From an uncultured Pelagibacteraceae bacterium (GTDB lineage Bacteria; Pseudomonadota; Alphaproteobacteria; Pelagibacterales; Pelagibacteraceae): a stretch of 64,000 nucleotides of DNA. Shown piece after piece: positions 45,541 to 64,000 of the stretch. Position 1 is the first letter of the stretch. Every line of letters begins with the position of its first letter. The position numbers and the translations under genes are program-made. Under the pieces are notes generated by a model that ran no database searches, was not told the DNA's origin, and saw only the letters and a program-made list of their open reading frames with translations. Location of the stretch: contig CACLLG010000002.1 in assembly GCA_902607735.1 (NCBI GenBank), forward strand, positions 6,635 through 70,634, read 5' to 3'.

Positions 45541-45567
45541 GTAAAATTATTTTGACTAATTTATATT

Positions 45568-46296: not shown

Positions 46297-46298
46297 TA

Positions 46299-47615
46299 TT
46301 AATTTATTAAATTATAATAATAAATATTAGAAAATATTAGAAAAATTGATAAATAACAGTAAAGAAAAATCGTTCTTTTATAATTTATATAAAATTTAGA
46401 ATTTAAAAAAGTAAATGCCATTAAAATAATAAGAGGATCAAAATATTCCTGCATAAGAGGAAAAATAACAATGGATAGTAAAAAAAAATAAGACATAACT
46501 AATTTACTTTTTAAGCTATTGCTTAAATAAACTAAAATTATTATCCACGAAAAGAAGAATGAAAAATAAATATATATTTTTTGAAAAATAATTTCTTCAA
46601 AAAATAATATTGCCGTTTTATGGACAAATCCCTTGCCCATTAAACGCATACCCTCATAATCATGAAAGAATAATAAATAAAATAAATAAATAAAAAATAT
46701 GGATATTAAATAATAATTTCTTTTTTGAGAAAAGAAATTTTTTACTAATCTTACTAAGTTTTCACTTTTATATAGCAATAAGGGTAATAAATAAAAAGCA
46801 ATAATTGTTGATGCATAACCTATGTGATAAAAAAATAGCTGATTACCCAACCCTCTACCCAAAGCATCTCTAGGTGGAATTAGTCCGCCCCAAAGTATAA
46901 TTAAATAAATGTATGGTAATGAAAAAATGAAATAAAGAAAAAAAGCAAAAAATTTTAATTTATGTGACTTAACAGAAAAAATAATTTGAATAAAACAAAT
47001 TAATGGAATAATAGCTAATTTTTGATCAAAATATAAACATATAGAGCTTACAAAAACGACCAGAAATAACAGATAATAATCCTTTGATTGATTATTATTA
47101 TTGTGCAAAAATTTATCCAAAAATAAAAAAGAAAGTAACAAAGTAATTAGACCAAAATTTTCTTCATTTCCCCAATAAGCGCTTGTTCTAAAAAAAGGAC
47201 TTAAAAAAATTGTAGTTGAAATTAAAATTAACAATAAGTTTTCTTCTTTTTTAAATTTTTGTTTTAAACATAAATAAAACAAAAATGGTACTAGCAGCGA
47301 TAAACAGAACACACTTGTTCTAAAAATAATTTCATTTCCTACAAATGGGTTAAATAATTTATGAAATATGTATATTAATGGTGTTCGAGCACTTGTATAA
47401 ATTTCCGGATCATAAGTAGTGGTTAAATTGATGCCTTTGCTTATGCTATTATTTAAAAAAGTGTGTAAATTAGCCCAGGTATGAGTAAAATCTGTTGGTC
47501 CACCTCCGGCGGAATTTTCGTCATAAATATAACCTATAAAGAAAGACGAAATAGATAATAAAATAAGAGCAATTGAAAAGTACTTATAATTATTTACTTT
47601 TATGGGCGCAAACAT
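46299..47615 (-). CDS. Polytopic membrane protein, GT-C-like (ArnT/PMT/GtrC-type) candidate glycosyltransferase
   Basis: 438 aa, more than 10 TM. Acidic first-loop motif YDENSAGGGPTDF. Divergent partner of the GtrB-like gene. The function is inferred. Confidence 0.45.
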   Translation of the reverse strand: MFAPIKVNNYKYFSIALILLSISSFFIGYIYDENSAGGGPTDFTHTWANLHTFLNNSISKGINLTTTYDPEIYTSARTPLIYIFHKLFNPFVGNEIIFRTSVFCLSLLVPFLFYLCLKQKFKKEENLLLILISTTIFLSPFFRTSAYWGNEENFGLITLLLSFLFLDKFLHNNNNQSKDYYLLFLVVFVSSICLYFDQKLAIIPLICFIQIIFSVKSHKLKFFAFFLYFIFSLPYIYLIILWGGLIPPRDALGRGLGNQLFFYHIGYASTIIAFYLLPLLLYKSENLVRLVKNFFSQKRNYYLISIFFIYLFYLLFFHDYEGMRLMGKGFVHKTAILFFEEIIFQKIYIYFSFFFSWIIILVYLSNSLKSKLVMSYFFLLSIVIFPLMQEYFDPLIILMAFTFLNSKFYINYKRTIFLYCYLSIFLIFSNIYYYNLIN

Positions 47616-47685
47616 ACGATAATCCTGAAATATTTAGTATAAAATTACAAGCAAATTATGAAATAGAGATTTGAAAAATTAAATA

Positions 47686-49242: not shown

Positions 49243-49295
49243 TTCGAAACAAGTTTTGTTAATTATGCAAAAAAGTCAATAGGTATTTATTAGCA

Positions 49296-50504
49296 TTATG
49301 TATTGTTAATAATGTAATTTGAAACAATTTTATAACCATCGTAATTAAAATGCATCCAATCTAACGGTCCATGCAAAATTTTATTTGCGTTTTCCTCCCT
49401 GATATGTTGGGCAATATCAAGAAAATCTAGATTATTTTTTTTGGAAAAATTTTCTATTTCTTCTCTAATATATTCGCTTTTTAAATCATTTTCCTTATTT
49501 GAGAGAATTTTAATTGTTTCTGAATTTTTTATCGTATATTCGATTGGTTCATCCCAAATATAACAGCTTATTGGAGATGGTATATAAACTATTAATATTT
49601 CATCAGTTCCTATCCAAGATTTAATATATTTTATTGATTCAAAAAATATTTTTAAACTTATCGAGATTTCTTCATTAGTTAAGTTAGCAGCCGCACTATG
49701 TAGAGGTTGTATATTGTTATAATTATCTTTGTTTTTTATTGAGTTGATGTATATTTCCTTATTTTTTTTTTCAGTATTTAAAAGGACAGTAAAACCTAAA
49801 AACTTTTTAATTCGATCGATTATTAATGATTTTTTATTTTCATTCTGATCATTGGTTAATAATTTGTTAAATAAAATATGTATATGACCATATAAATCAC
49901 CCACGATTGAAATTAGAGGAAGAAGACTAGTTAACTTGTCATTCGTAGTAAGACTGGTATTTTCTTTAATGCGTCGCGAAACAAAACTGTTAATATCTTC
50001 ATTTGTATTTGATAGTGAAGAATATTCAAAAAAATTATCTTCGAGATCGTTGCCCTCGTAGAAAAAAAAGATAATTGATTCTGGTTTATTTAAATTTTTA
50101 AAAAAAATTGGTAAATTACTTATTTTCTTTAATTTAACTAAATTTGAAACAGCAGAAATAGAGCCAAAACCTGCTCTTCCAAATATTAAATAATTTTTAT
50201 CGTCATTTTTGTGTAAATGATGACCAATAGAATAATCGTAAGTGCCATTTAAATACCCATCACCATTTCCTTGGGAGTAAGAATCTCCTACAATAGCTAT
50301 ATAATTTTCTAAATTATTCTTTTTATAGGTATCTGGATAAAATGTTACTAGAAAATTAGGTAAAGAATTGGCGAGAGATCTTGGATAAAATTTTTGTGAA
50401 GGAAAATTTAAAATTAGAAAATTAACAATTAGTAAGCTCAATATTAGAAAAATTATTAAAATAAAGAAATTTATAAAATAATTTTTTAGCTTTATTAAAT
50501 CCAT
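49296..50504 (-). CDS. Membrane-anchored SGNH/GDSL-like hydrolase or acyl-transfer protein
   Basis: 402 aa. N-terminal TM, block I IAIVGDSYSQGNGDG (GDS), C-terminal DWMH (DxxH). Confidence 0.5.
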   Translation of the reverse strand: MDLIKLKNYFINFFILIIFLILSLLIVNFLILNFPSQKFYPRSLANSLPNFLVTFYPDTYKKNNLENYIAIVGDSYSQGNGDGYLNGTYDYSIGHHLHKNDDKNYLIFGRAGFGSISAVSNLVKLKKISNLPIFFKNLNKPESIIFFFYEGNDLEDNFFEYSSLSNTNEDINSFVSRRIKENTSLTTNDKLTSLLPLISIVGDLYGHIHILFNKLLTNDQNENKKSLIIDRIKKFLGFTVLLNTEKKNKEIYINSIKNKDNYNNIQPLHSAAANLTNEEISISLKIFFESIKYIKSWIGTDEILIVYIPSPISCYIWDEPIEYTIKNSETIKILSNKENDLKSEYIREEIENFSKKNNLDFLDIAQHIREENANKILHGPLDWMHFNYDGYKIVSNYIINNT

Positions 50505-51839
50505 TTATTTATTTAACAATTTTCTTTGACTCAATATAAGAGATGCAATTAATATAATGTATGTAGCATTATTGGTTGTAAAAATGCTACCGGTTTGTTT
50601 AAAAGGAAACACTTCTAATATTAAACTTGTTATAGACGCTATCAAAATTAATTTTTTTTGGCTATCATCATTTAAAAATTTAAAATTTCTAAACAAAAAA
50701 GCTATGAATGCTACTCCCATTATTACTATAACAATAAATCCTATTATTCCAGTTTCTGTTAAAATTTCTATGTAGTAATTATGAGGATGAGAAGCACACA
50801 GTCGATTTTTTTTATTCATATTAACTTTTATACAATCATCTCTGAATGATTTAATTCCATTTCCAAATATCTTATTAAATTTCCAGGTATCAACTCCGGT
50901 AAATATTAATTTTTTAAATGAATTCGATGTTGGAAGCCATTTTTTTTCTTCTTTTGGTTTCATATTCGATCTACTTTCAGTTGATAGCTCATCTAAATCG
51001 ACCATAATATTTTTTACGTTTAAATAAAAAGATAAATAACTTTTTTTAATATGATTATCGAATGACGCTGCAATCCAAATAATTATAGATAAAATCAAAA
51101 AACTTGCTGGTATTATTTTTTTTAATTTTTTGCTTAGAACAAAAATTATGATTAAACCTAATAAAAATAAAATTAAAGGCATTCTATTTCCAGAGAATAA
51201 AATACCAACGCCTAATAAACATATTAGTGAAGTGATTAATATAAACTTTAAAAGTTTTTTATCTTTTAGTTTAAAAGCTAAAAAAAGTACTGAAAAAAAT
51301 GAAAAGTTTTGTATAAACCCGCCTGCTATCCATTCGTCACCAAAAAAACTAGAATTATGATGAAAATAACCCTCGAGTCCTATGATATTAAAACCAAAAA
51401 AGTATTGATAAATTATATCGAAGGATATTAAAATTGGAGAAAAAACTGCCGTTAGAAAAAAATATTTAAAATTTAAAACACCAGACTCGCTCAAGAGACA
51501 TACTATTATTAACATTAAAAAGAATCTAAAAAATAATATAGATTTTACTAACTTTAATAAATTATCATACTCATATCCATCGCTATAAAGTGATTTGATA
51601 AAACTGAGTGCTGTTGAAAAAAAAATTATTAAAAAAAATATAAAAATAATTTTTATAGAAAAATTAAATTTAATTTCTAAAATTCTCGATTTTAAATAAA
51701 AAATACCTAAAAAACAAAATAATAGAATATTAATATTAGTTATTAAGTTTCCTAAAATAAAGCTAATCGGAAAAAAACCAAAAACAAAATTTGTAAAAAA
51801 AATGCAATTAGTATTAAAAATTTTTTTATTTAAAATCAT
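50505..51839 (-). CDS. O-antigen ligase/polymerase family membrane protein (Wzy_C-type)
   Basis: 444 aa, about 10-12 TM. The periplasmic loop contains GNGIKSF...SHPHNYYIEILTETGIIGF, matching the O-antigen ligase domain signature (H-N-x-x-L-x-x-x-x-E-x-G-x-x-G). Confidence 0.7.
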   Translation of the reverse strand: MILNKKIFNTNCIFFTNFVFGFFPISFILGNLITNINILLFCFLGIFYLKSRILEIKFNFSIKIIFIFFLIIFFSTALSFIKSLYSDGYEYDNLLKLVKSILFFRFFLMLIIVCLLSESGVLNFKYFFLTAVFSPILISFDIIYQYFFGFNIIGLEGYFHHNSSFFGDEWIAGGFIQNFSFFSVLFLAFKLKDKKLLKFILITSLICLLGVGILFSGNRMPLILFLLGLIIIFVLSKKLKKIIPASFLILSIIIWIAASFDNHIKKSYLSFYLNVKNIMVDLDELSTESRSNMKPKEEKKWLPTSNSFKKLIFTGVDTWKFNKIFGNGIKSFRDDCIKVNMNKKNRLCASHPHNYYIEILTETGIIGFIVIVIMGVAFIAFLFRNFKFLNDDSQKKLILIASITSLILEVFPFKQTGSIFTTNNATYIILIASLILSQRKLLNK

Positions 51840-51840
51840 T

Positions 51841-52749
51841 TTAATCTTGGTAAAACCATAAAAATTTCTTTAATATAATTCCTGGCATAATAAGTATAAA
51901 TAAATTTTTCATGTTAAATATATTGCTTTTTCGATTTAGTAAAATATTAAAGCACTCTTTATATTTGCCATCAATTTTGTAATTTACAAGTTTATAGTAA
52001 TCAAGTTTATTTTGTATATTTCTAAAATTAAATTGACTTAAATCATCTTTGTTTTCATTCAACCATATCTCATGTTCTTTAATTTCTTTTTCTTTTAAAA
52101 TAGCTGACAAATTACCAGCGTGTAATCTATAAAAAGCTAAAGGTTTTTGAACACTTTCAAAAATACATAATTTTGAAAGCCTTAAAAATAAATCAAAATC
52201 ACCTATGATTGAAAATCGTTCGTCAAATTTCTTTTTTAATTTTAAATAAAATTTTTTTCTTAAAACTACCGTTAAAATTCCTATATTATAATTTTTTATT
52301 AAATCGTCATAAATAAAACCTCGAGGCAAATTTTTTTTTGTATATATTTTCTTTTTATTCATATTATTTTTAATAATCCAAAGATTGCTATAAACTAAAC
52401 CTACTTCTGAATTACTAAAAAAGCCCATTTGCATCTCAAGTTTGTCTTTGCTCCACATATCATCAACGTCCAGGAAGGCGATAAAATCGCCATTTGATTT
52501 TTCTATTGCCAGATTTCGCGCTTCATACAATGCTGTATGTTTGTCTGCGTCAAAATACTTAAACCTTTTGTCATCATAACTTTTAAATATTTTTGCGCTT
52601 TTATCTTTTGATTTGTTATCCCAGAAAATTATTTCCCAATTTTGATAAGTCTGATTTTTTATACTTTCAATAGAATCTTTTAAAAAGTTTTCACCATTAA
52701 AACAATTCATTATTATGCTTACTAATGGTTTTTTGTTATTTATTTCCAC
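51841..52749 (-). CDS. GT2-family glycosyltransferase
   Basis: 302 aa. VSIIMNCFNGENFLKDSIESIKNQTY...FWDNKS and FLDVDDMW. Confidence 0.8.
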   Translation of the reverse strand: MEINNKKPLVSIIMNCFNGENFLKDSIESIKNQTYQNWEIIFWDNKSKDKSAKIFKSYDDKRFKYFDADKHTALYEARNLAIEKSNGDFIAFLDVDDMWSKDKLEMQMGFFSNSEVGLVYSNLWIIKNNMNKKKIYTKKNLPRGFIYDDLIKNYNIGILTVVLRKKFYLKLKKKFDERFSIIGDFDLFLRLSKLCIFESVQKPLAFYRLHAGNLSAILKEKEIKEHEIWLNENKDDLSQFNFRNIQNKLDYYKLVNYKIDGKYKECFNILLNRKSNIFNMKNLFILIMPGIILKKFLWFYQD

Positions 52750-53474
52750 TTAAATTTACTTTTTTTATAAATTTTTTCTAATACTTCTTTGTCACGTTTG
52801 GTATCCATACATTTCCAAAAACCTTTATGCTTAAATGCATAGAGCTGTTCACTTAAAGAAGCTTTTTCTAACGGTTCTTTTTCTAAAATTGTTGTATCTC
52901 CTTTAATTAAGTCAAAAAAATCATATTTGGCAATAAAAAAACCACCATTTATCCATCCTTCTGTAACCTGTGGTTTTTCTTTAAATGAAATTACTTTATT
53001 TTTTTTTAAAAGAATCTCACCAAATCTGGCTGGTGGTCTTACTGCTGTAACAGATACTAACCTATTATGTTTTTTATGAAATCTTTCTAAACTTTTTAGA
53101 TTTACATTAGAAATTCCATCTCCATAGGTAAACATAAAGTTTTCTTCTCTGTTAATAAATTTTTTTACTCTCCTTAAGCGTCCACCCGTAAATGTCTTTG
53201 CACCCGTATAAATTAATGTAATTGTGCAAATTTTGTTATTTATTTTGTGATGAAATTTTTTATTAAGATTTTTAAAATTTTTGAAATATTTCGTTACTAC
53301 ATGACTTTTATAACCTAGCGCAATATAAAAATCATTGTAATTATACTTTAGATACTGTTCCATTATATGTACAAGCAGTGGCTTATTACCAATTTTTACC
53401 ATCGGCTTAGGTACAGTATTTGTATGTTCGGCAAGTCTTGTTCCAAGGCCTCCAGCTAACAAAATAACTTTCAT
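52740..53474 (-). CDS. rfbF: Glucose-1-phosphate cytidylyltransferase
   Basis: 244 aa. MKVILLAGGLGTRLAEHTNTVPKPMVKIGNKPLL, and WKCMDTKRD near the C-terminus. Confidence 0.8.
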   Translation of the reverse strand: MKVILLAGGLGTRLAEHTNTVPKPMVKIGNKPLLVHIMEQYLKYNYNDFYIALGYKSHVVTKYFKNFKNLNKKFHHKINNKICTITLIYTGAKTFTGGRLRRVKKFINREENFMFTYGDGISNVNLKSLERFHKKHNRLVSVTAVRPPARFGEILLKKNKVISFKEKPQVTEGWINGGFFIAKYDFFDLIKGDTTILEKEPLEKASLSEQLYAFKHKGFWKCMDTKRDKEVLEKIYKKSKFKWK

Positions 53475-53478
53475 AAGT

Positions 53479-54582
53479 TTAAAATATTTTTGCGCATTTT
53501 GAACCTTTTTTAATCATTAAATATTGATATTTTTTTATTTGCTCATTTGTATTGTAAGCGGCATTTTTTGGATTCTGGTAAAATTTACTATACCAGTTTG
53601 ATACCATGTCCATTACTTCATCTAATTTGAGAATGCTCTGCCATTTCAAAATTTTTTTAGCCTTTTCACAATTCAATCTTAATAACCCCGATTCATAAAA
53701 TTTTTTTTTAGAATCTGAACTTATTTTCCAATGGACATTATTCCAATATTTGTTCATTGATTTCATTACATCTAAAACAGTAAACTCTTTAGATAAATTT
53801 GGTCCAAAATTAAATGGTTGACCATGCAATTTTTTATTTAGTTTTAAATTTACTGCTAAACATAAATAACCTCCCGCTGCTTCAAGTACATGCTGCCACG
53901 GTCTTGTCGATTTTGGATTTCTAATAATTACTTTTTTTCCTTTAGACCATGATCTTACACAATCAGGTATAAGACGATCTTGTGCCCAATCTCCTCCCCC
54001 AATAACATTTCCTGCTCTAGCTACACCAATTATCACCTTGGTTTTTTTTAATGGAAAAAACGATTCAATATAAGATTTAATTAAAAGTTCTGCTGATGCT
54101 TTTGAGGCGCTATAGGGATCATGACCTCCTAAAGAATCGTCTTCTTTATATCCTTTTTTTTGCTCAATATTTTTATAACACTTATCGCTTGTTATAATTA
54201 CAGCTACACATTTTTTTTTCATTTCTCTGAGTGATTCTAAAACATTTAGAGTTCCAATTAAATTTGTATGCCAAGTTTTATTTGGATTTTTATAAGATTT
54301 TTTTACAAGAGACTGTGCCGCTAAGTGAAAAACAAAGTCAGGTTGATATTTTTTAAAACATTTTTTTAGAGAATTTAAATTTCTAATATCCCCTCTTACA
54401 TCAGTGATATTTTTATTTATTTTAGCAGAAATGTAATGTGAAGGCTTGGTTGGCACACTTATTGAAAATCCAATAACTTTGGCTCCTAAATTTTTTAGCC
54501 AGCATGTCAACCACGATCCTTTAAATCCAGTATGACCTGTAACAATAATTTTCTTGTTTTTAAATATTTTTTTTAAATTCAT
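53479..54582 (-). CDS. rfbG: CDP-glucose 4,6-dehydratase
   Basis: 367 aa. VTGHTGFKGSWL, YSASKASAE (YxxxK), TRPWQHVLE. Confidence 0.8.
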   Translation of the reverse strand: MNLKKIFKNKKIIVTGHTGFKGSWLTCWLKNLGAKVIGFSISVPTKPSHYISAKINKNITDVRGDIRNLNSLKKCFKKYQPDFVFHLAAQSLVKKSYKNPNKTWHTNLIGTLNVLESLREMKKKCVAVIITSDKCYKNIEQKKGYKEDDSLGGHDPYSASKASAELLIKSYIESFFPLKKTKVIIGVARAGNVIGGGDWAQDRLIPDCVRSWSKGKKVIIRNPKSTRPWQHVLEAAGGYLCLAVNLKLNKKLHGQPFNFGPNLSKEFTVLDVMKSMNKYWNNVHWKISSDSKKKFYESGLLRLNCEKAKKILKWQSILKLDEVMDMVSNWYSKFYQNPKNAAYNTNEQIKKYQYLMIKKGSKCAKIF

Positions 54583-54632: not shown

Positions 54633-55145
54633 TTATACTTGATACTTTTTTATGTATTTGTGTGCCAAAAATGCAGTGTAAGAAAAAACTAGAGTAGATA
54701 AGAAAGTATTTTTAAAAAAAGGTATGGCAAGGAAATAACAATGAACTAGACCATCAAAACTTTTTTCATACATCGAGCTAATAGCCCAAACTCCAAAGTT
54801 TGAAATAATAAAGAATATAACCGACCCAATAAAACCAAATATAAATAAATTTTTGAAATTAATTTTCCAGTTTGTTTTAAAAAAAACAAAAGTTATTACA
54901 AGCAAAGACATATATACGAAAATCATATGACCATAAAATCCAATAAAAAAATCGGCTATTAACATTGAAATTATCATAGTTGCAAAAGATAAATAAATGT
55001 TTCTAAAAAAATAGCTACTCATTATTGCGACAGCTATAACTGGAGTAAAATTTGGTGGATGAGGGATTAGTCTAGCTAATGCTAAAATCAGTATAAAACT
55101 AATTGGAACAATTTCTTTATCTAAATTTTTTAATAAATTTTGCAT
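54633..55145 (-). CDS. Small polytopic membrane protein (DUF6580-like), possible inner-membrane vitamin transport component
   Basis: 170 aa, 5-6 TM. LARLIPHPPNFTPVIAVAI N-terminal motif as I recall for DUF6580. Lies 4 nt downstream of the BtuB-like gene, so is probably co-transcribed. Confidence 0.45.
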   Translation of the reverse strand: MQNLLKNLDKEIVPISFILILALARLIPHPPNFTPVIAVAIMSSYFFRNIYLSFATMIISMLIADFFIGFYGHMIFVYMSLLVITFVFFKTNWKINFKNLFIFGFIGSVIFFIISNFGVWAISSMYEKSFDGLVHCYFLAIPFFKNTFLSTLVFSYTAFLAHKYIKKYQV

Positions 55146-55149: not shown

Positions 55150-57063
55150 TCAATATACCCTTCTTATTCCAAAATTAAAAGACCTATCCATTTGTGAATA
55201 ATCTCTAACGGTCTCATATTTTTCATCTAAAATATTATTTATATCAAAAAATAGATTGTAAGTGTTCCATAAATTATATTTTATTGATAAATCATTTACT
55301 AAATAATCATCTAAACCTTCATCTTGATATGTTCTGTTACCATTCCCATAATCTCTTGCTTCATCAGACCATTTAGTATTCAACGTTAAATCTAAATTTT
55401 TATAACCTGGAATTTTTATATTTGTTGCTAAATTAATAATATTTCTGGGGACTCTAACCATTTGTGCCATGGTATAAGCGTGATTTTTATCGGGATCATC
55501 TTGTTCTGCACCATCGTACGTAGATGTATAAGTATAATTTAAATCAAAATTTAATTTATCACTTTTTTTCCATTTTGAAACTAATTCCAAGCCTTGAGAT
55601 TCAACAACTCCAGGAAAATTATATGACTCCCAAGTTCCTGTTCCTTTCCAACCTTCAATTGTATCATTATATTTTATGTTAAAATAAGAAGCATCTATAC
55701 TTAATCCTAAATTTGAAAAAGATTTTTCAATTCCTAAATCGAAACTTTCACTAGTTTCCGCTTTCATTGAAGAATTGAATGAGTTAAGCCAATTAAGTTC
55801 ATAAAGAGAAGGAAAACGAAATCCTGTTCCATAAGAACTTTTTAATTTTGTAGATTTATCATCAAAAAGATAAGCTAATGTTGCTCTGTGTGAATCTTCG
55901 TTGCCAGCATGTTTGTGTTCATCAAATCTTGAACCGAATGTCGCATAAATATTATTAGTAACTCTGCTTTGATAATCAAAATAGGTTGATGTTACATATG
56001 CATGGTCATCTATACGACCAGCCATGTCTTTGTTGTATCCCATTTTATCCTCTTCTCTTTCAAACCCAAATACAACACTGTTATCAAGATTAAAATTATA
56101 ATTACCTGAGTATATAAACCCATATCTAGTTCCATAATAATTATCTTGAGCTATGTTACCGCTATTTGGAGTTTCCGCAGCGATTCTTTCGATATATGTA
56201 TTTGCTAATGTTAATTTATTAATGAATTGACTATTTGGTTCATAAATTAAAGATATATTTGATGAAGACTGTAGAGCATCTAACTCTTCACTATGATCTG
56301 CCGAAGCGGTATCCAATTCTTTATCATACTGAGAGTAAGTTTCAGCAACTCTTAGATTACTTTCAAATTTTATTTTTTCAGAAAATTTATGTGCATAATT
56401 TGCAACTATAGTATTGTTTCTGTATCTATCTTTTTCATCATTATGTGTCATTGCTGACATACCGTTAGTATGGAATCTTTCTAAACCGATACGAAAATTA
56501 TCATTTTCATCTGCTCCAGAGAATGAAAGTGATAAATTATTGGTTCCGTGAGATGCATGATTATATTGTATATTTTTTTGAAAACCGGGTTCACCTTTTT
56601 TAGTCGTAATATTTATAGTTCCTCCTATAGCTCCACTTCCATAGACGGAACTTTGATTGCCTTTTAAAATTTCTACCCTGGCTATTTGGCTTGTTAAAAT
56701 ATGATTAAAATTAAAGTCGTTCGATGGACTTGCTGGATCAGACATTTTAACACCATCAATATAAACAGTTGAATATCTTTTTGGTAAACCTCTCAATTGA
56801 ACAGCTGAAGTTTGTCCTTGGCCACCATTTTGAAAGAAATTAATGCTTGTTGAGTTCGTTGCTAAAGCATCTCCTAAAAAAAGCTCATTTGAATTTTTAA
56901 AAAATGTTTCATCAAACACTGCCACAGAGGTTCCAACAGTTGAAACAGATTGTGCTTTTTTGCTTGGAGCTATAACAATTATAGGTATATCTGCAGCAAA
57001 AACACTATTTATTGGGAAAGATAGAATTATAATTAGTTGTATTATTCTTTTTAGCATAAGCAT
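55150..57063 (-). CDS. btuB: TonB-dependent outer-membrane receptor, BtuB-like (vitamin B12 transporter candidate)
   Basis: 637 aa. Signal peptide, TonB-box-like IPIIVIAPS, plug motifs (VQLRGL, VYIDGV, RVEILKGNQSSVYGSGAIGGTINI), and a beta-barrel ending FNFGIRRVY. Size is close to BtuB and a cobalamin riboswitch lies directly upstream. Confidence 0.8.
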   Translation of the reverse strand: MLMLKRIIQLIIILSFPINSVFAADIPIIVIAPSKKAQSVSTVGTSVAVFDETFFKNSNELFLGDALATNSTSINFFQNGGQGQTSAVQLRGLPKRYSTVYIDGVKMSDPASPSNDFNFNHILTSQIARVEILKGNQSSVYGSGAIGGTINITTKKGEPGFQKNIQYNHASHGTNNLSLSFSGADENDNFRIGLERFHTNGMSAMTHNDEKDRYRNNTIVANYAHKFSEKIKFESNLRVAETYSQYDKELDTASADHSEELDALQSSSNISLIYEPNSQFINKLTLANTYIERIAAETPNSGNIAQDNYYGTRYGFIYSGNYNFNLDNSVVFGFEREEDKMGYNKDMAGRIDDHAYVTSTYFDYQSRVTNNIYATFGSRFDEHKHAGNEDSHRATLAYLFDDKSTKLKSSYGTGFRFPSLYELNWLNSFNSSMKAETSESFDLGIEKSFSNLGLSIDASYFNIKYNDTIEGWKGTGTWESYNFPGVVESQGLELVSKWKKSDKLNFDLNYTYTSTYDGAEQDDPDKNHAYTMAQMVRVPRNIINLATNIKIPGYKNLDLTLNTKWSDEARDYGNGNRTYQDEGLDDYLVNDLSIKYNLWNTYNLFFDINNILDEKYETVRDYSQMDRSFNFGIRRVY

Positions 57064-57079: not shown

Positions 57080-57225
57080 GCTAATTTTGCATCGTAGAAC
57101 TAGACTTTTCCTGGCCTTCGTTCAACAGCGGACTATACTGGGTGGAGCTCGGACTATCTTATACTTCTAAACCGTTGCAGGAACAGTCAATGAATTTCAC
57201 ATTGTTTCCCACCATGCATTTCAGT
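57080..57225 (-). promoter_or_regulatory. Cobalamin riboswitch (compact, class-II/AdoCbl-variant-like architecture)
   Basis: The minus strand reads GGTGGGAAACAATGTGAAATTCATTGACTGTTCCTGCAACGGT...AGTCCGAGCTCCACC. It contains GGGAA, hairpin CAATG-TGAAATT-CATTG (GGUGaaAAuCC-type), CCTGCAACGGT (CCCGCaACUGU-type), and a B12-box-like AGTCCGAGCTCCACC whose CCACC pairs with the 5' GGTGG. Boundaries are approximate. Confidence 0.7.
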
Positions 57226-57234
57226 ACAATTTTG

Positions 57235-57263: not shown

Positions 57264-57291
57264 TATTCAAATTTGTATCTTATAATAATTT

Positions 57292-59091
57292 TTAGCCTGG
57301 TTTAAATTTAGACAAATTTAAATCATTTATTAAATTCATACCGTTTGTTAAATATTTCCTTAATCTTTCAAATTCCGATGTATATTCTTGAACTTTTGTA
57401 TCATTATTAATAAATTCTCTTAAAACATTTTCAATAGAATTTAATGAATAAGAATTTGTAAATTTAAAATCTTTTTCAAAAATATCCAAATAATTATCCA
57501 TGAGATTAAGTTCACTTCTTAAATTTAACACAATATTACCATTTAACGCAGCATTGTATGCTGCGCCAGTAGACAAAAAAATTGCAATAGAGCATTCATC
57601 TAAAAGTTTATCAACATCATCGTTAGATACAAAAGTATTTTTTGAAAGTTTTTTTAATTCCACTTGGGTTAATATTTTTGTAATGTTTAAATTTGGATGT
57701 GGCTTTATAATAAAATTATAATTGGTATTTTCTAGCCTGCTGCTTAGTTTTATTACACTATTTATTAATTCAAAAGATGCATCTCTTACATGGGACAAAG
57801 GTATTAAAATATAATTTTTTTTCTTGGTTAATTTTTTTTTCTTAACCAGTAAATTGTTATATCGTAAAGCTGGCCCTTCAATAATTCTTTCATTTGGAAT
57901 GCCTTGTTTCTTAAGCATTTTTGTTGAAACGGAACCTAATGATATAACGTAGTCAGGTTTAAACTTACTCGTCCATTCAGAATTAAGACTATGCCAAGCT
58001 GTAAATTCTCTGCTGGACAAAGTATGATGGTATCCAATAATTTTTGTTTTTATTTTTAGTTCTCTTGCAGCTGATATCAAAGCCACTTCAAAGTTCATAT
58101 TTTCATAATGGTCTATGCAGGTTAAAGAATCGCAGTTTTTTGTCCATTTTTTTAGAGCTGGTTGATATATCCAAAATCTTAGGTTGTAATTAAGCTGCTC
58201 TAAATAAAGTCTTTTTTCTCTTAAGATTAAATAACTTATATCTATGCCAGGATATTTAGATTTAGTTTCAAAACATGATTTTACCCTTAATAGATTTTTT
58301 ATGGCAGAAATATAATCTCCAAAATTTATCCAGTCTTCTGGGACAAACGAATTGTCTTTTCTTATTTTTTTTAAGGCTTTTATTTTTCCAGACCAAAAAA
58401 TAAAGGACCAGGTAAGAAAATATAAATCAATTTTTTCTTTTGAAAAATACTCTTTTAAATATGGAAAATATCTTGATTTTAAATTTTTGTTTCCTCTTAA
58501 TGAATCAATCTCTGAGTATTGATGAATCAAACATATATTTCCTTTTGGTAATATTTTTTTTCTCAAAGTAATTTTTGCGGAAATAGCATTAAAAATTAAA
58601 TCGAGAACGCCTATTCCTAAATTTTTTAAAAACTTAAAATAATGTATAAATAAATTTTGTAAAATTTTAAATTTAATTAAATTACTTTTCTTAATCAATA
58701 GATAATCAAAATTTTTTATTATAGCCTGAATTAAAAAAATATCATCACTTACAATTAACAATTCTTCTTCTTTAAAATTGTCTAAAATTTTTTTTAATGA
58801 CTTTATTTGACATATATATAAAAAAAAGTTTGAATTAGCATTATTTCTTCCAGCTAATTCAGTCATCCACCAATGAACACTATCATTAAAATGTGTTCTT
58901 TGTTTTTCTGTCCATTCTAAATAATTTGATAACTCTTGATCAAAACTTTCATGTAAAAATTCATTTATTTTTATTTTTTGTCCAATAATTTTTTTTTCAA
59001 CTAATGATAATTTTTTAAATGAAGAACCTAAAAATATCCATTTTTTAGTCCATATTAATTTTTCATCATAATGTGCTATTTTAATTTTCAT
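57292..59091 (-). CDS. Hypothetical protein, possible GT-B/TagF-like surface-carbohydrate biosynthesis enzyme
   Basis: 599 aa soluble ORF. The C-terminal half has a Rossmann-like pattern (IIGYHHT..., YILIPLS..., IIKPHPN, FLSTGAAYNAALNG) reminiscent of CDP-glycerol transferase or capsule GT-B enzymes. No firm family call. Confidence 0.35.
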   Translation of the reverse strand: MKIKIAHYDEKLIWTKKWIFLGSSFKKLSLVEKKIIGQKIKINEFLHESFDQELSNYLEWTEKQRTHFNDSVHWWMTELAGRNNANSNFFLYICQIKSLKKILDNFKEEELLIVSDDIFLIQAIIKNFDYLLIKKSNLIKFKILQNLFIHYFKFLKNLGIGVLDLIFNAISAKITLRKKILPKGNICLIHQYSEIDSLRGNKNLKSRYFPYLKEYFSKEKIDLYFLTWSFIFWSGKIKALKKIRKDNSFVPEDWINFGDYISAIKNLLRVKSCFETKSKYPGIDISYLILREKRLYLEQLNYNLRFWIYQPALKKWTKNCDSLTCIDHYENMNFEVALISAARELKIKTKIIGYHHTLSSREFTAWHSLNSEWTSKFKPDYVISLGSVSTKMLKKQGIPNERIIEGPALRYNNLLVKKKKLTKKKNYILIPLSHVRDASFELINSVIKLSSRLENTNYNFIIKPHPNLNITKILTQVELKKLSKNTFVSNDDVDKLLDECSIAIFLSTGAAYNAALNGNIVLNLRSELNLMDNYLDIFEKDFKFTNSYSLNSIENVLREFINNDTKVQEYTSEFERLRKYLTNGMNLINDLNLSKFKPG

Positions 59092-59197: not shown

Positions 59198-60784
59198 CTA
59201 ATCATGCAAATCAAGCATTGTAGCTTCACTTAAACGATACTTTTGATCAAATTCTTCTCCCAACTTTTTGTGCATAGCATTTCCTTTGGGATTTGATTGT
59301 TCTGCTAATTTAATATCATTCCATCTACTTTCAGGAAATTTCACATAATAACTGAATGTTCTTGCTAAACCTGAAATTTCTTCCTTTGATATTGTGGGCA
59401 TATTCAGCATACTGAATGCTGTATTAGATATTGATGCTATTACATCTTTTTGAATATAGCCCTTTCTAATAGCCAAGTCTCTCAAAGGGGTTCCATGATA
59501 GGGTGCCCAAATAAATGCACCTGTGGCATCAATATTTTTTGGTAATTTTCTCATAAACTTAATCGTATCAAAAATTAAATTTCTGTTTTCGTCTGGCATA
59601 CCAATTATTGCATTTGCACAACTAACATACTTTTTGTCAGCAAGCATTTCGAAAGCCTTAATTTGAACTTCGTCAGACACATTTCTTTTTAAATATTTTT
59701 TTCTATATTCTGTATTCCCATGCTCAACACCTATGCTAGTTCTAAGCATATTCATATCTTCTAAGCCAGCAGCTCTATGTTCATTTATAGTTTCAGCCCT
59801 AGTATTCATCCAAAAAGGAATTTTATAGTCCATATACATTTCTTTAAATTCATCAAAATCTCTATCCGACATTGCTAAAAATGTATCAACAACCATATAG
59901 ATCAAGTCTGGATTATATTTTTTGACCAAAAAGTCTAATTCTTGCTTCATTCTTTTTATTGATTTTTTTCTATGAAAAATTTTTTTTGTTTCATCTTTAT
60001 ATACAACATTGTTAGAGGGAGAATTACAGAAAGTGCATGTATAGGGACATCCCCTTTGTGTTTCAAATCCAACTGCTCTATAAATTTTTCCTTGCATTGG
60101 TCTATAAATACTACCAGGTTCAAACAAATCCCAATTTGGAATTGGAACAGTATCAATATCTACTGCTGGTCTAAGGCTATTTCTATAAACCGTACCTTCA
60201 TTTTTAACGAAAAAATTTAAAATGTTATCTATTCTATCTTCTGTAACTAATTTCTTACAAAATTCTTGAATTGCTGCTTCTCCTTCTCCTCTACAAACAT
60301 AATCTACTAATTCATTTTTAATACATATTTCGGCAGCATATGTAGCGAACACTCCTCCAAATAAAGTCTTATAATTTCTATCCTTTTTTTCAACTGAGTT
60401 CAGAAGTTCTAATGCCAAATAATAAGTGCTTTCTAAGACTGAGCATATTATTAAATCTGGTTTAAATTCTTTGACTTTTTTTACAAAATCTTCTTTTATG
60501 CCAATTTTTGGTTTGGCTCCCTTTTTTTCCCACTCAGAATTATCATGTTTTCGAACTTGCTTATTTTCTATTTTTTCATCAGTTGTATTTTTGCCCAGAT
60601 TAATTGCATTAATATCTTGATAAAAGGTACAATCGAAAAGATCTAACGCATATCCTTCTTCCTTTAAAAGAGAAGTGAATATACCGATGGACTGTGGCAT
60701 TAAAGCGCTCATGTGAAGATTAGGATAAAATAATAAAATCCTAAAATCTTTTGGGCGTCTTGATGAAAAAGGTGATTTCAACAT
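59198..60784 (-). CDS. B12-binding-domain radical SAM protein (class B), paralog 1
   Basis: 528 aa. PDLIICSVLEST...LFGGVFATYAAE...CRGEGE (B12-binding-domain pattern), then GCPYTCTFCNSP. Confidence 0.8.
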   Translation of the reverse strand: MLKSPFSSRRPKDFRILLFYPNLHMSALMPQSIGIFTSLLKEEGYALDLFDCTFYQDINAINLGKNTTDEKIENKQVRKHDNSEWEKKGAKPKIGIKEDFVKKVKEFKPDLIICSVLESTYYLALELLNSVEKKDRNYKTLFGGVFATYAAEICIKNELVDYVCRGEGEAAIQEFCKKLVTEDRIDNILNFFVKNEGTVYRNSLRPAVDIDTVPIPNWDLFEPGSIYRPMQGKIYRAVGFETQRGCPYTCTFCNSPSNNVVYKDETKKIFHRKKSIKRMKQELDFLVKKYNPDLIYMVVDTFLAMSDRDFDEFKEMYMDYKIPFWMNTRAETINEHRAAGLEDMNMLRTSIGVEHGNTEYRKKYLKRNVSDEVQIKAFEMLADKKYVSCANAIIGMPDENRNLIFDTIKFMRKLPKNIDATGAFIWAPYHGTPLRDLAIRKGYIQKDVIASISNTAFSMLNMPTISKEEISGLARTFSYYVKFPESRWNDIKLAEQSNPKGNAMHKKLGEEFDQKYRLSEATMLDLHD

Positions 60785-62407
60785 TTATCTCATCTCATCT
60801 CTATGCGCAGGATTGTTTTCAACCAGGGTATTGTTTGGATCCTCTATATTCTGAAAATCTTCTACGCCTCCATGAGGATCGGCGTCGGGTTTTGGCATGT
60901 ATTTTTCTAGAAATTCTACCTTCAAATTTTTATAAATTTTATTTCCTTCATCTGTATTTTTTTCAGCTTTTTTAATTTCAGGCCATCTACTTTTTGGGAA
61001 TTTTACATATAGAGCAAAACATTTTTTTATTTCTTCTATCTCGTGGGGTGGATACTGTGGCATGTTTAGTTGAGCTTCGCTAGTTACACACTTAGTTATT
61101 TTTTGTGAATCTATAAGACCCTGCTCTTCGCACATTTTTCTTAAAGGTGTTCCGTGAAAGGGAACAAAAGCATATATATTAGAATTATCGGAATCTATCT
61201 GTCTATTTATCTCAATCGTATCAAATGCAAGTTTTTTTGTTTCTGTTGGAAAGCCTGTAATATTATTTACACTAAATGCAATTCCATATTTTTTTGGTAT
61301 TTTAAGTTTTGCGATTATATCTTTGTTTTTCCATCTTCTATCTAGTATTTTCTTTCTAAACTCTTCGTTACCATGCTCCACTCCAAAAGAAACTCTATGA
61401 AGACCTACAGATTTTAACTTTTTCATATTATAGTCTGTAATTGTTTCTGGTCTAGTTTGTATCCAAAAAGGAAGTTTTATATCACTATACATTTCACAAA
61501 ATTGATCAAATTCATTACCATTCATGGCTAAAAAAGTATCAGCCCAAAAATAATTATATTCTACTTTATGAACTTCCTTAAAATGTTTTAGTTCTTTATA
61601 AACAAGATCCATTCTTTTTTTTCTATAAAAATTTTTTCCTAAACCTTTATATAATCTCATCTGATCTGGGGAGTTACAAAAAGTACACGTAAATGGACAT
61701 CCTCGAATTGTTTCAACTGGAAACATTTTATAAACTCTTCCAGCCATTGGTCTATAAAGGCGATTTTCTTCAAATAAGGCTGTGTCAATAATAGGATTTT
61801 CATTAATATCAACAGGATCAGAAATACTATTCTTTTCAATAATTTCATTATTATTTTTTATCCAAACATTTGTTATTTTTGAAAAATCATTTTTACTCTC
61901 GATTTTTTTGCATAGATCAATTAAAGCATTTTCGCCCTCCCCCACGCATACCATATCGATCAAGTCATGCTTGATGCATATTTCTGGAGCAAAAGTAGGG
62001 AAAACGCCTCCTGCAATAACAGGAATCTTGTTTGCAATTTTATATTCTTTTATTTCCTCTAAAATTCTAATGCCTAGTTCCCACATATCTTCCGTGGCTG
62101 ATAGAGCTATCAGATCTGGTTTATATTCTTTAACTTGTGTTTTTACATCCTTTCGCCAATCGGTGTTCTTGACCTCAAGTTTTTTCTTTTTCATCTGTTT
62201 TGTAAACGGAACTACATTTAATCTTTCTTCCTTAGATCCATCAGAATCAATTGCATGATCTGTTTTATAATAAGTAGTATCAAAAACACGAACTTCGTGA
62301 TTATGTTGTTTTAAAATAGCAGAAAACAGAGCTATAGCTGGTGGCAGCATATTCATGCCGAACGAATTTGGATATATAAATAAAACTTTTATTCCCATAA
62401 AATACAA
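60785..62407 (-). CDS. B12-binding-domain radical SAM protein (class B), paralog 2
   Basis: 540 aa. PDLIALSATEDM...IAGGVFPTFAPE...CVGEGE, then GCPFTCTFCNSP. Colinear with paralog 1 along its whole length. The stop abuts the paralog 1 start. Confidence 0.8.
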   Translation of the reverse strand: MYFMGIKVLFIYPNSFGMNMLPPAIALFSAILKQHNHEVRVFDTTYYKTDHAIDSDGSKEERLNVVPFTKQMKKKKLEVKNTDWRKDVKTQVKEYKPDLIALSATEDMWELGIRILEEIKEYKIANKIPVIAGGVFPTFAPEICIKHDLIDMVCVGEGENALIDLCKKIESKNDFSKITNVWIKNNNEIIEKNSISDPVDINENPIIDTALFEENRLYRPMAGRVYKMFPVETIRGCPFTCTFCNSPDQMRLYKGLGKNFYRKKRMDLVYKELKHFKEVHKVEYNYFWADTFLAMNGNEFDQFCEMYSDIKLPFWIQTRPETITDYNMKKLKSVGLHRVSFGVEHGNEEFRKKILDRRWKNKDIIAKLKIPKKYGIAFSVNNITGFPTETKKLAFDTIEINRQIDSDNSNIYAFVPFHGTPLRKMCEEQGLIDSQKITKCVTSEAQLNMPQYPPHEIEEIKKCFALYVKFPKSRWPEIKKAEKNTDEGNKIYKNLKVEFLEKYMPKPDADPHGGVEDFQNIEDPNNTLVENNPAHRDEMR

Positions 62408-62461
62408 GAATACTACTTATAATTAAATATTAAACCTCTAAATAAAAGCATTAATAAATAG

Positions 62462-63181
62462 TTATTCTCCCCCAGAAATCGAAATGGTTTGACCAGTAAT
62501 ATAAGAATTTTTGTCGGTAGCAAGATTCATTATATAAGATGATATCTCTTTTGGTTCAGCCATTCTATTCATAGGTATAAGTTTAATTCTTTTTTTTAAA
62601 TCTTTGCCTTTTGTTCTTTTGTGAGCTTTCGTATTAGTTATACCTATACGCAAATTATTAATTAGTACATTTTTTTTTGCCCAGTTTTTATATGAACTTG
62701 GAATAAATTCTAAACTATGTTTAGCTAGTGCGTAATTATATGTGTAGGTTCCTCCTCCAAATTTAATACCTACACTTGTGCAATTTAAAATTCTGCCAAA
62801 TTTTTGATTTAACATTTTTTTGACGGCTATTTTTTCTATTAGAATAGGAATGAGAGCATTTGCACTTAAAGATTTCAAAATACTTTTCAAGTTTGTTTCA
62901 TCAAAACTTTTATTATCTAAATAACATATAAGATTAATAATTGAATCATACTTTTTATTAAATTTTTTTAAAATCAATTTTTCAGAGGACAAATTATAAT
63001 TGGCAAAATTAAATTTAACTAATTTCAAATTTTTTGTTTTTTTTTGCAGTATTTTTAATTTTTTAGAATTCTTATTATAGTGAGCTGTAACATTCCATTT
63101 TAAATTTAAAAAACTTTTAATTACTTCTGATCCAATATCAGAACTACCACCTAAAACTAACAAATGTTTTTTTTTAATCAT
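62462..63181 (-). CDS. Short-chain dehydrogenase/reductase (SDR)
   Basis: 239 aa. LVLGGSSDIGSE cofactor motif, YALAK (YxxxK), C-terminal YITGQTISISGG. Confidence 0.75.
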   Translation of the reverse strand: MIKKKHLLVLGGSSDIGSEVIKSFLNLKWNVTAHYNKNSKKLKILQKKTKNLKLVKFNFANYNLSSEKLILKKFNKKYDSIINLICYLDNKSFDETNLKSILKSLSANALIPILIEKIAVKKMLNQKFGRILNCTSVGIKFGGGTYTYNYALAKHSLEFIPSSYKNWAKKNVLINNLRIGITNTKAHKRTKGKDLKKRIKLIPMNRMAEPKEISSYIMNLATDKNSYITGQTISISGGE

Positions 63182-63184
63182 TTT

Positions 63185-64000
63185 TTATTTTACCTCCTGC
63201 CAAGCTCGAGCATGATCACCACCCATGTATGTTCCCGTAACATCGCACTTATCACATGGTGCAAAATTTCTATTTGCTTTAAAAAGATTTTTTCTTGCAA
63301 AACTAAATTTTTTACTCATCCAAATATCAATGAAACTTTCATTTTTCAAATTTCCTACAACTAATTTTTTACCCCAATCGTGTGAACAAACTAATACTTC
63401 TCCTGTGTAGTCCATAAAAAAAGTATAGTGCGGGTAGTAACAAGGTTTTTTCATTGGTTCTTTTAATGACGGAATAACATATTCTGCTTTCTCCATCATT
63501 CCTGCTCTGTTACTTAAGGTAATTCCAAAACTGTCACTTTCCGGTAAATATCTGTGTCTAACTTTAAATTGTTCATCAGTTAAATCACAATCTCGTAAAA
63601 GTTTTTCCATTTCATCAGCTTCTTTTTTTCCATCATAAATACTAACTAACAAAGTAGATAGTCCTGAACTAAATAATTGTTTTGCTCTTTGTGTGTCGAG
63701 CACATCTCCATTTGTTACCATTTCTATTTTTGCCTTCGGTAAATTATTTCTAACTATATTTATAAGATTATAAATATTTTTATCTAACATAGGTTCAACA
63801 AATCCCGAGAACAAAAAAATTCCACTGTAGTCATAGTTAGATAATTCTTTAGAAAGTTTTACAATAAGATCTTCTGATATAAATTCTTTTATATCTGGAA
63901 AATCTGGTGCACTTCTTGGACAAAAACTGCATACTCTATTACAGGTTCCTGATTCGCTTATTTCTATAACTGAAGGTAATGGTATACTTTTTTTAAAAAA
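63185..64000 (-). CDS. Radical SAM protein with SPASM/twitch domain; N-terminus runs off the window
   Basis: The ORF track starts at a TTG (63814), but the frame stays open to position 64000. Upstream it reads ...KKSIPLPSVIEISESGTCNRVCSFCPRSAPDFP..., containing CNRVCSFC (CxxxCxxC). C-terminal Cys cluster: CYYPHYTFFMDYTGEVLVCSHDW...APCDKCDVTG. Confidence 0.8.
   Translation of the reverse strand, partial: FFKKSIPLPSVIEISESGTCNRVCSFCPRSAPDFPDIKEFISEDLIVKLSKELSNYDYSGIFLFSGFVEPMLDKNIYNLINIVRNNLPKAKIEMVTNGDVLDTQRAKQLFSSGLSTLLVSIYDGKKEADEMEKLLRDCDLTDEQFKVRHRYLPESDSFGITLSNRAGMMEKAEYVIPSLKEPMKKPCYYPHYTFFMDYTGEVLVCSHDWGKKLVVGNLKNESFIDIWMSKKFSFARKNLFKANRNFAPCDKCDVTGTYMGGDHARAWQEVK

Follow-up and report, generated by a model that had tools for sequence, protein, structure and literature searches.

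A radical SAM gene cassette with an adjoining putative cobalamin import module in the surface-glycan island of a SAR11-type genome

The 64,000-nt stretch analysed here (the window; contig CACLLG010000002.1 of assembly GCA_902607735.1, forward-strand positions 6,635 to 70,634) comes from an uncultured Pelagibacteraceae bacterium and ends in a minus-strand gene run that encodes a radical S-adenosylmethionine (SAM) enzyme with a twitch/SPASM domain, a short-chain dehydrogenase/reductase (SDR), and two cobalamin (B12)-binding radical SAM enzymes of class B, here called B12a and B12b. A preliminary description made from the letters alone had covered these four genes. The four genes stood, but that description ended at position 59198 and missed both a protein with a predicted GT-B fold (T608, 57292-59091) and a putative B12 import module (54633-57227). 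The run thus extends further than had been described, and it is without a characterised counterpart; as had been supposed, no characterised pathway with this gene set was found. The features, in gene order, are as follows.

63185..64000, minus strand: twitch/SPASM radical SAM enzyme, 5' end cut by the window edge, 270 readable codons
62462..63181, minus strand: SDR, FabG-like classical type, 239 aa (adh_short_C2, 77.7 bits)
60785..62407, minus strand: B12a, class-B radical SAM enzyme, 540 aa, TTG start (PF02310, 48.7 bits; PF04055, 67.3 bits)
59198..60784, minus strand: B12b, class-B radical SAM enzyme, 528 aa (PF02310, 48.1 bits; PF04055, 62.4 bits)
57292..59091, minus strand: T608, 599-aa protein with a predicted GT-B fold, no Pfam match
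57135..57227, minus strand: cobalamin riboswitch aptamer of the AdoCbl-II class (RF01689; cmscan 82.5 bits, gathering cutoff 36.5, E = 3.3e-19)
55150..57063, minus strand: TonB-dependent outer-membrane receptor, BtuB-like, 637 aa (Plug, 70.9 bits; TonB_dep_Rec_b-barrel, 111.3 bits)
54633..55145, minus strand: DUF6580 membrane protein, 170 aa (PF20221, 133.7 bits)

Open reading frame (ORF) calls and Pfam searches bore out the arrangement of four consecutive minus-strand genes 0-54 nt apart, with spacings of 3, 54, and 0 nt from the twitch enzyme to B12b. Both class-B proteins carry an N-terminal cobalamin-binding Rossmann domain (PF02310, gathering cutoff 32.1 bits) followed by a radical SAM core with the CxxxCxxC motif, and in B12a the cysteines of C237-x3-C241-x2-C244 were invariant (alignment A1). 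The two are indeed full-length colinear paralogs (37% identity over 513 columns, E = 5e-116, BLASTP), and all four motif pairs quoted in support of this were found in their translations. DUF4070, suggested earlier as a profile to search for, was not found by Pfam in the radical SAM enzymes. A promoter and terminator scan of 54.5-64 kb gave nothing above the shuffled expectation.

Homologs of B12a numbered more than 2830 at E <= 1e-10, and the family formed 722 clusters at 50% identity in an exhaustive representative library (E <= 1e-30); the best full-length representative of such a cluster was only 46% identical to B12b. The nearest PDB matches were remote, namely OxsB (41.8 bits) and TokK (27.3 bits) for B12a and AprD4 (41.9 bits) for B12b. 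Neither protein reached any NCBIfam equivalog cutoff (45-96 bits vs cutoffs of 250-750) when compared with the BchE, HpnJ, HpnR, PhpK/Sden_1168, KedN5, ApyD, Mmp10-type, TsrM-type, and BzaD models. The scores also lay far below the cutoffs of the bacteriochlorophyll and hopanoid enzymes, placing both proteins outside these non-sugar families, which had been raised as a possible home for them.

A tandem duplication followed by divergence had been proposed for this pair; the paralogy held, whereas the local duplication did not. A neighbour-joining tree was built from 86 family members, with B12b on a long branch. B12a of the window was nested within the Pelagibacteraceae clade, whereas B12b and its ortholog in locus L001 branched outside the entire B12a clade, which spans phyla of bacteria and archaea. 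Even with the most distant of its orthologs, those of other phyla and of archaea, B12a shared 45-51% identity, vs 37% with B12b. A metagenome scan with B12b yielded 35 loci. The tandem was confined to near-identical relatives of the window and a few others (L089-L093, L121; L001-L004), and about 20 marine contigs held a B12b ortholog (65-82% identical) with no adjacent B12a. Judged from these sequence comparisons, B12a and B12b are true paralogs, yet each belongs to an old, independently mobile subfamily whose members adjoin those of the other in some loci, with no local duplication.

The genes upstream of the pair had been described as an SDR and a radical SAM enzyme with a C-terminal SPASM/twitch domain, and the Pfam matches agree: adh_short_C2 for the former, and PF04055 (41.4 bits) together with PF13186 (SPASM, 43.2 bits) for the latter, whose orthologs are 292-295 aa long (292 aa in L089, a near-identical contig described below). 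Its suspected kinship to BtrN was likewise recovered, since BtrN was the best PDB sequence match (4M7T, 90.3 bits, E = 1.3e-24, nearly full length, phmmer); the ortholog in locus L005 scored 94 bits against BtrN. The CNRvCsFC motif and all four C-terminal cysteines align with BtrN, in which these four are reported to be the auxiliary-cluster ligands. Such homology with aligned cysteines suggests a one-auxiliary-cluster enzyme of the carbohydrate-dehydrogenase type. Across the loci collected, a cytidylyltransferase lay directly upstream of the twitch enzyme in 16 of 30 cases, and an SDR or an aminotransferase lay no more than two genes downstream in 19 of 30, an alternation that would be expected if the BtrN-like enzyme makes a ketone. 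By analogy with BtrN, the twitch enzyme would oxidise a secondary alcohol of a carbohydrate to a ketone. The SDR itself reached no NCBIfam equivalog, the best being YmfI (120 bits vs a cutoff of 238). A candidate cytidylyltransferase-radical SAM fusion, TIGR04321 ("spiro-SPASM"), was dropped after the cytidylyltransferases tested gave no match to it at the E-value thresholds used.

T608 had no Pfam match and, in a profile search, no PDB match at the sequence level; it is a remote relative of TIGR04326 (74.3 bits, and 80.1 bits for the L005 ortholog, against a cutoff of 250). An AlphaFold2 (AF2) model built with 24 homologs had a predicted local distance difference test score (pLDDT) of 92.9, and Foldseek matched it to UDP-N-acetylglucosamine (UDP-GlcNAc) 2-epimerases/NeuC, GT1 glycosyltransferases, TagF/TarL, and Cps3D in the PDB with E values of about 1e-7. 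There were 184 PDB structure matches at E <= 1e-3, and all of the 50 matches listed were GT-B enzymes. Among 28 family members, only E330, P379, R410, L429, H465, and P466 were kept across phyla, and the H465-P466 pair falls where the C-terminal Rossmann domain begins. As modelled, T608 is probably a nucleotide-sugar-dependent transferase of the pathway. Some SAR11 loci without T608 have in their cassette a 432-446-aa protein with no Pfam match (fam28; minus strand, 7747-9045 in L002, and also in L009, L011, L014, and L016-L018), which is remotely related to the C-terminal half of T608 (hhalign E = 1e-4) and shares its His-Pro motif.

The riboswitch occupies part of the 228-nt gap between T608 and the receptor gene; it aligned to model positions 1-81 of 81 and lies 71 nt upstream of the receptor start codon. 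The top NCBIfam matches of the receptor were B12 receptor models, although below cutoff (TIGR01779, 175 vs 599.7 bits; NF007926, 106.9 vs 836 bits). Always adjoining the receptor gene, the DUF6580 gene has more than 4700 marine homologs, and its motif R25-x2-P-H-P-x-N-F was invariant in 16 aligned SAR11 sequences (alignment A3). DUF6580 had no PDB match by sequence, single or profile; the best Foldseek PDB matches of its AF2 model (pLDDT 88.8) were S-components of energy-coupling factor (ECF) transporters, including BtuM with bound cyano- or hydroxocobalamin (8c7p, 8ovv). The modelled fold suggests that DUF6580 is probably an inner-membrane corrinoid transporter of the ECF S-component/BtuM-like kind.

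RF01689 precedes the receptor in L002-L008 and in 12 of the 13 GTDB Pelagibacteraceae loci holding the receptor; it does so also beside a lone B12b (L116) and in several metagenome contigs, and it occurred in none of the non-SAR11 loci among those scanned. Its presence in 12 of 13 loci suggests that SAR11 glycan islands may be a main natural home of this riboswitch class from marine metagenomes. Members of RF01689 favour methyl- or hydroxocobalamin and discriminate against adenosylcobalamin (AdoCbl) (PMC5028336), a preference that fits a class-B client using methylcobalamin. The unit of riboswitch, receptor, and DUF6580 adjoins B12a or B12b in SAR11 loci, and the island of the window encodes three presumptive B12 enzymes (B12a, B12b, and a third, B12c, described below) together with the import system. 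A functional coupling of the cassette to B12 import is likely. SAR11 has been described as neither requiring nor making B12 (PMC8552899), and it has also been called a B12 auxotroph, with the question raised whether its btuB is regulated by B12 (PMC9296465). Searches of the open-access literature, whose silence is weak evidence, gave no report of a B12-binding radical SAM enzyme, a TonB receptor, or a riboswitch in the hypervariable region HVR2 of SAR11, nor of B12-binding radical SAM enzymes in O-antigen or nonulosonic-acid clusters, nor on DUF6580.

An exact-sequence look-up of the SDR returned no record, and contigs were gathered through homologs instead; the close homologs of window genes came from marine metagenomes and from single-amplified genomes (SAGs) and metagenome-assembled genomes (MAGs) of Pelagibacteraceae. 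Sequence past position 64000, which had been sought to complete the operon, was supplied by the ENA/TARA contig L089, 95.6% identical to window positions 56885-64000 over 7117 nt and reaching 4.96 kb further. Its gene order is a LIC12162-family transferase (partial), a PglK/MsbA-like ABC exporter, an HMGL-like aldolase (534 aa), a cytidylyltransferase of the KdsB subfamily, the twitch enzyme, the SDR, B12a, B12b, and T608 (599 aa). The cytidylyltransferase matched NF009905 with 291 bits (cutoff 255), and the HMGL-like protein was nearest to 4-hydroxy-2-oxovalerate aldolase, below cutoff. No precursor-peptide gene was present in the approximately 5 kb beyond the window edge, in line with the earlier view that a role in making a ribosomally synthesised and post-translationally modified peptide (RiPP) is less likely. 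At 5780-6500 of L089, the SDR call was split into two pieces (55 and 188 aa), and B12b, called at 504 aa, was shorter than the 528-aa protein of the window. A frameshift, an error of assembly, or a different start call might account for this; the copies in the window are intact. Locus L005, from the Pelagibacteraceae SAG AG-439-C08, has the same gene set with a single B12a placed after a 605-aa protein of the T608 type. With the aldolase and KdsB-type genes upstream in L089, a keto-deoxy sugar acid activated with cytidine monophosphate (CMP) is at least as likely a substrate as the product made from glucose activated with cytidine diphosphate (CDP). A link to CDP-glucose had been drawn from the nearby rfbF and rfbG; the genes are there, and the link is just one option. 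As the substrate, a CMP-ulosonic acid can be put forward tentatively, at somewhat below an even chance, and a CDP-hexose is doubtful.

From species-representative genomes, 80 B12a-type loci were returned. Their proteobacterial hosts were Pelagibacteraceae, Rhodospirillales (including Terasakiella sp. A23), Methylocystaceae, Gallionella, Sulfuricella, and Gammaproteobacteria; the others were Nitrospinota, Omnitrophota, Planctomycetota, Nitrospirota, Elusimicrobiota, Bacteroidota, Patescibacteria, Methanoregula, and Thaumarchaeota. For 79 of the B12a loci, ORFs were called and clustered on 10-kb flanks and cluster representatives annotated, which gave the following numbers of loci per neighbour.

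NAD-dependent epimerase/dehydratase: 45 of 79
CTP_transf_3 cytidylyltransferase (PseF-like): 34 of 79
T608: 29 of 79
Twitch/SPASM radical SAM enzyme (about 386 aa): 26 of 79
GT2 glycosyltransferase: 26 of 79
PGDH-like 2-hydroxyacid dehydrogenase: 24 of 79
Glucose-1-phosphate cytidylyltransferase: 19 of 79
SDR: 18 of 79
HisC-like aminotransferase: 17 of 79
HAD phosphatase: 17 of 79
DegT aminotransferase: 16 of 79
NeuB: 15 of 79
CDP-glucose dehydratase: 13 of 79
FkbM methyltransferase: 12 of 79
KdsB-like cytidylyltransferase: 11 of 79
Shorter T608 relative (432 aa): 7 of 79

Strings such as 2-hydroxyacid dehydrogenase - cytidylyltransferase - twitch enzyme - SDR - methyltransferase - B12a - epimerase - HAD - T608 recurred in Betaproteobacteria, Nitrospinota, Rhodospirillales, Omnitrophota, and Methanoregula. 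The cassette genes therefore do occur together elsewhere, a point on which the earlier proposal had been left to depend; the exact four-gene set is confined to relatives of the window, and what is kept across phyla is a looser cassette of cytidylyltransferase, twitch enzyme, SDR or aminotransferase, B12-binding radical SAM enzyme, and GT-B protein. In Terasakiella sp. A23 (L038, NZ_JAWLVJ010000019.1), whose B12a is 60% identical to that of the window, the order is 2-hydroxyacid dehydrogenase - epimerase - FkbM - cytidylyltransferase - aminotransferase - B12a - twitch enzyme - T608 - GT2 - rfbF - rfbG. Having a strain name and no MAG or SAG label, Terasakiella sp. A23 is presumably a cultured isolate.

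The remainder of the window places the cassette in its genomic setting, for which the relevant features are listed below.

53479..54582, minus strand: CDP-glucose 4,6-dehydratase RfbG (TIGR02622, 458.7 bits, cutoff 278.45)
52740..53474, minus strand: glucose-1-phosphate cytidylyltransferase, RfbF-like (TIGR02623, 270.3 bits, just under the cutoff of 300.25; NTP_transferase, 80.7 bits)
43066..52749, minus strand: remaining glycan island by Pfam scan, with a GT4 initiating transferase, three GT2 genes (one of them, 45568-46296, on the plus strand), a methyltransferase, a Wzy_C ligase/polymerase, and a GDSL-like protein
47686..49242, minus strand: B12c, a third B12-binding radical SAM enzyme, of a different subfamily (PF02310, 58.1 bits; PF04055, 70.5 bits)
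42796..43056, minus strand: 5S rRNA and tRNA-Val(GAC) (Rfam, 89 bits for 5S and 75 bits for the tRNA; ARAGORN)
27567-27900, plus strand: two-piece (permuted) alphaproteobacterial tmRNA, tag peptide ANDKFALAA

Including rfbF and rfbG, which do lie close to the cassette as had been noted, the glycan genes occupy 43-54 kb of the window. The presence of GT4, GT2, Wzy_C, and methyltransferase genes with rfbF/rfbG in one island supports the earlier assignment to a cell-surface glycan locus. The G+C content of the window is about 30% and falls to 20-24% at 44001-48000 and 50001-52000, over glycosyltransferase, Wzy, and membrane-protein genes, which fits horizontally exchanged island content. The layout from pntAB through the 5S rRNA/tRNA to the glycan island is the same in SAG AG-439-C08 (L005), whose pntA is 63% identical to that of the window, and the 5S rRNA/tRNA-Val(GAC) forms a conserved boundary between pntAB and the island; the 23S side matching this boundary would fall outside the window. 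These features match HVR2, which is known from the literature on SAR11. The locus is an HVR2-like island of surface-glycan genes in a Pelagibacterales (SAR11-type) genome, bounded by the 5S rRNA, and the role of the cassette is very probably the tailoring of a surface glycan. Within the island, B12c sits between the GDSL-like gene and a gene for a 438-aa membrane protein, and its best NCBIfam match was HpnJ (177 bits vs a cutoff of 577.6). Loci of Gallionella, Sulfuricella, Thalassospiraceae, and Omnitrophota carry relatives of B12c close to the cassette.

With moderate confidence, we read the cassette as encoding the central tailoring steps of a pathway to a surface glycan, located in this SAR11-type island and provided with a dedicated cofactor supply. 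From the observed domains, homologies, riboswitch, and synteny, we infer substrates, an order of steps, and a methylation as follows. The HMGL-like (DmpG-type) aldolase seen in L089 would form a 4-hydroxy-2-oxo (3-deoxy-2-ulosonic) acid, which the KdsB-type cytidylyltransferase of the same contig would activate to a CMP-sugar. As its homology to BtrN suggests, the twitch enzyme would then abstract a hydrogen atom from the activated sugar and so turn one of its secondary alcohols into a ketone, with the auxiliary cluster as the electron sink. The SDR may re-reduce this ketone, resulting in a net epimerisation, and in other lineages an aminotransferase may aminate it instead, as the alternation of these neighbours suggests. 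B12a and B12b would methylate unactivated carbons by way of methylcobalamin, at two sites or at one site twice, as expected from their family; C-methylation by the two enzymes is modestly favoured. Going by its predicted fold and its His-Pro pair, T608 may pass the finished residue to the growing glycan, and the PglK-like and Wzy_C proteins would export and polymerise it. Cobalamin for B12a and B12b (and B12c) would enter through the adjacent BtuB-like receptor and the BtuM-like DUF6580 protein, and would turn the import genes off through the AdoCbl-II riboswitch.

Several points weigh against this pathway. The aldolase and KdsB-type genes were read in L089, outside the window itself, and the neighbourhood counts come from our own ORF calling and clustering, with many flanks incomplete. 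The cassette enzymes score below every curated equivalog threshold, so that catalytic assignments are by family only, and OxsB and AprD4, the solved proteins to which B12a and B12b come closest, though weakly at about 42 bits, are non-methylases. T608 also resembles UDP-GlcNAc 2-epimerases and TagF-type phosphotransferases, with low template modelling (TM) scores of 0.3-0.5, and its His-Pro pair, which resembles the HP motif of bacterial CMP-sugar (sialyl/Kdo) transferases, can be read as such a motif only tentatively. For DUF6580, the match to BtuM combines TM scores of 0.58-0.62 and probabilities of 0.96-0.98 with weak E values of 0.3-0.6. Furthermore, rfbG and rfbF lie in the same island, and their counterparts lie near B12a in 13-19 of the 79 loci.

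This last point leads to a different substrate: the cassette might tailor the CDP-4-keto-6-deoxyglucose made by RfbF and RfbG into a C-methylated CDP-deoxyhexose for an O-antigen or surface glycan. The two genes are 4.6 kb downstream on the same strand, and the loci with CDP-glucose genes near B12a belong to Alpha-, Beta-, and Gammaproteobacteria, often with these genes right after T608. No extended-SDR 4-ketoreductase follows rfbF in the window, so that the cassette SDR could serve in its place. Against this, rfbF/rfbG are absent from the 10-kb surroundings of B12a in about 60 of the 79 loci, and the CTP_transf_3 and KdsB-like cytidylyltransferases are commoner (34 and 11 loci) and lie directly upstream of the twitch enzyme, as does the KdsB-type gene, with the aldolase, in L089. 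In addition, the 228-nt riboswitch leader and the independently regulated receptor/DUF6580 unit separate rfbG/rfbF from the cassette. We consider a CDP-deoxyhexose product unlikely.

Methylation could also be replaced by another reaction on the sugar, B12a and B12b acting as non-methylases that catalyse a rearrangement or ring contraction (OxsB-like) or a dehydration or cyclisation (AprD4- or BchE-type). The best PDB sequence matches are to OxsB and AprD4, the best NCBIfam matches include BchE and HpnJ (about 94 bits), and FkbM and Methyltransf_23 proteins are frequent neighbours, so that ordinary methylation is covered elsewhere. However, these matches lie far below the family thresholds and cover only the shared B12-binding and radical SAM core, most characterised class-B enzymes are methylases, and a riboswitch class that senses methyl- or hydroxocobalamin fits a methylcobalamin cycle. 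Non-methylase chemistry is improbable on this evidence. That the cassette instead matures a RiPP, modifies a hopanoid- or ladderane-like lipid, or methylates a phosphonate head group as Fom3 or PhpK would is very improbable: Fom3 does work on a cytidylylated substrate and there are weak NCBIfam matches (TIGR03975, 69-76 bits; HpnJ/HpnR; TIGR04072, 74 bits; PhpK, 63-86 bits), but these scores are 3- to 10-fold under the cutoffs, the upstream part of L089 holds no small precursor ORF or RiPP context and its ABC exporter is PglK/MsbA-like, the neighbourhood is one of glycan biosynthesis in every lineage, and a motif scan for the EDKx5NS motif of phosphoenolpyruvate mutase found it neither in the window nor in any of the 124 loci, which speaks against a phosphonate.

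Most of what is known of class-B radical SAM enzymes concerns the synthesis of antibiotics, cofactors, lipids, and RiPPs. The class-B family described here is large and uncharacterised, and its surface-glycan loci, in which the same partners keep recurring, range from SAR11 to Nitrospinota, Omnitrophota, and methanogens; with thousands of family sequences in ocean metagenomes, it points to an undescribed kind of radically tailored sugar. Speculatively, and with the balance somewhat against it, the combination of B12a, T608, and twitch enzyme might represent a new cross-phylum pathway for the radical tailoring of CMP-activated sugars, and many SAR11 populations might keep in the island a riboswitch sensing methyl- or hydroxocobalamin, together with a receptor for corrinoids and a BtuM-like importer, mainly or only to serve up to three B12-binding radical SAM enzymes that build a C-alkylated surface sugar. 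If so, the diversity of the phage- and grazer-facing surface glycan of the ocean's most abundant bacterium would hinge on an exogenous vitamin, and vitamin availability would be linked to cell-surface structure and hence to phage and grazer interactions. The physical coupling to riboswitch-controlled import would account, in a concrete and testable way, for the uptake of B12 by a lineage that is said to do without it, and it gives a natural genomic context to an AdoCbl-variant riboswitch class that was defined from marine metagenomes. Terasakiella sp. A23, which carries the cassette, is a possible experimental host.

Among known systems, the closest to the twitch enzyme is BtrN, the 2-deoxy-scyllo-inosamine dehydrogenase of butirosin synthesis. 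Both are of similar size (about 290 aa here vs 250-270 aa), and in related loci the twitch enzyme is followed by an aminotransferase, much as BtrS acts after BtrN on the way to 2-deoxystreptamine. BtrN, however, belongs to an aminoglycoside cluster and acts on a free aminocyclitol, whereas the enzyme of the window is encoded in a surface-glycan locus beside a cytidylyltransferase and presumably takes a sugar acid or hexose in nucleotide-activated form as its substrate.

The import module recalls the riboswitch-controlled btuB and the solitary BtuM of Proteobacteria in that a riboswitch precedes a TonB receptor, beside which lies a small membrane protein whose predicted fold comes nearest to ECF S-components, BtuM among them. 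It differs in that the receptor scores below the BtuB cutoffs, no sequence similarity between DUF6580 and BtuM was detected, and the module is embedded in a glycan island next to its presumed client enzymes. With the pathways to CMP-Kdo (Kdo, 3-deoxy-D-manno-octulosonic acid) and the nonulosonic acids, in which a synthase, a KdsB- or NeuA-type cytidylyltransferase, and a GT-B sialyl/Kdo-transferase act in turn, the locus shares a KdsB-subfamily cytidylyltransferase scoring above its NCBIfam cutoff in L089, NeuB and PseF-like genes in many related loci, and a presumed last enzyme of predicted GT-B fold with a conserved His-Pro pair. In contrast to those pathways, the condensing enzyme here is HMGL/DmpG-like and not KdsA- or NeuB-like, two kinds of radical SAM enzyme are added, and T608 has no sequence match to known transferases.

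Lastly, B12a and B12b share with the characterised class-B enzymes (GenK and GenD1 of gentamicin synthesis, Fom3, and the solved TokK and OxsB) the order of a B12-binding domain followed by a radical SAM core. The methylases among them include enzymes acting on sugars or on cytidylylated substrates (GenK, GenD1, Fom3); Fom3, whose substrate is CMP-2-hydroxyethylphosphonate, resembles the cassette enzymes further in having a cytidylyltransferase in its context. The similarity is remote, the PhpK family for example scoring 63-86 bits against a cutoff of 600, and B12a and B12b differ from all of these in forming a large family of their own in the glycan loci of many phyla.

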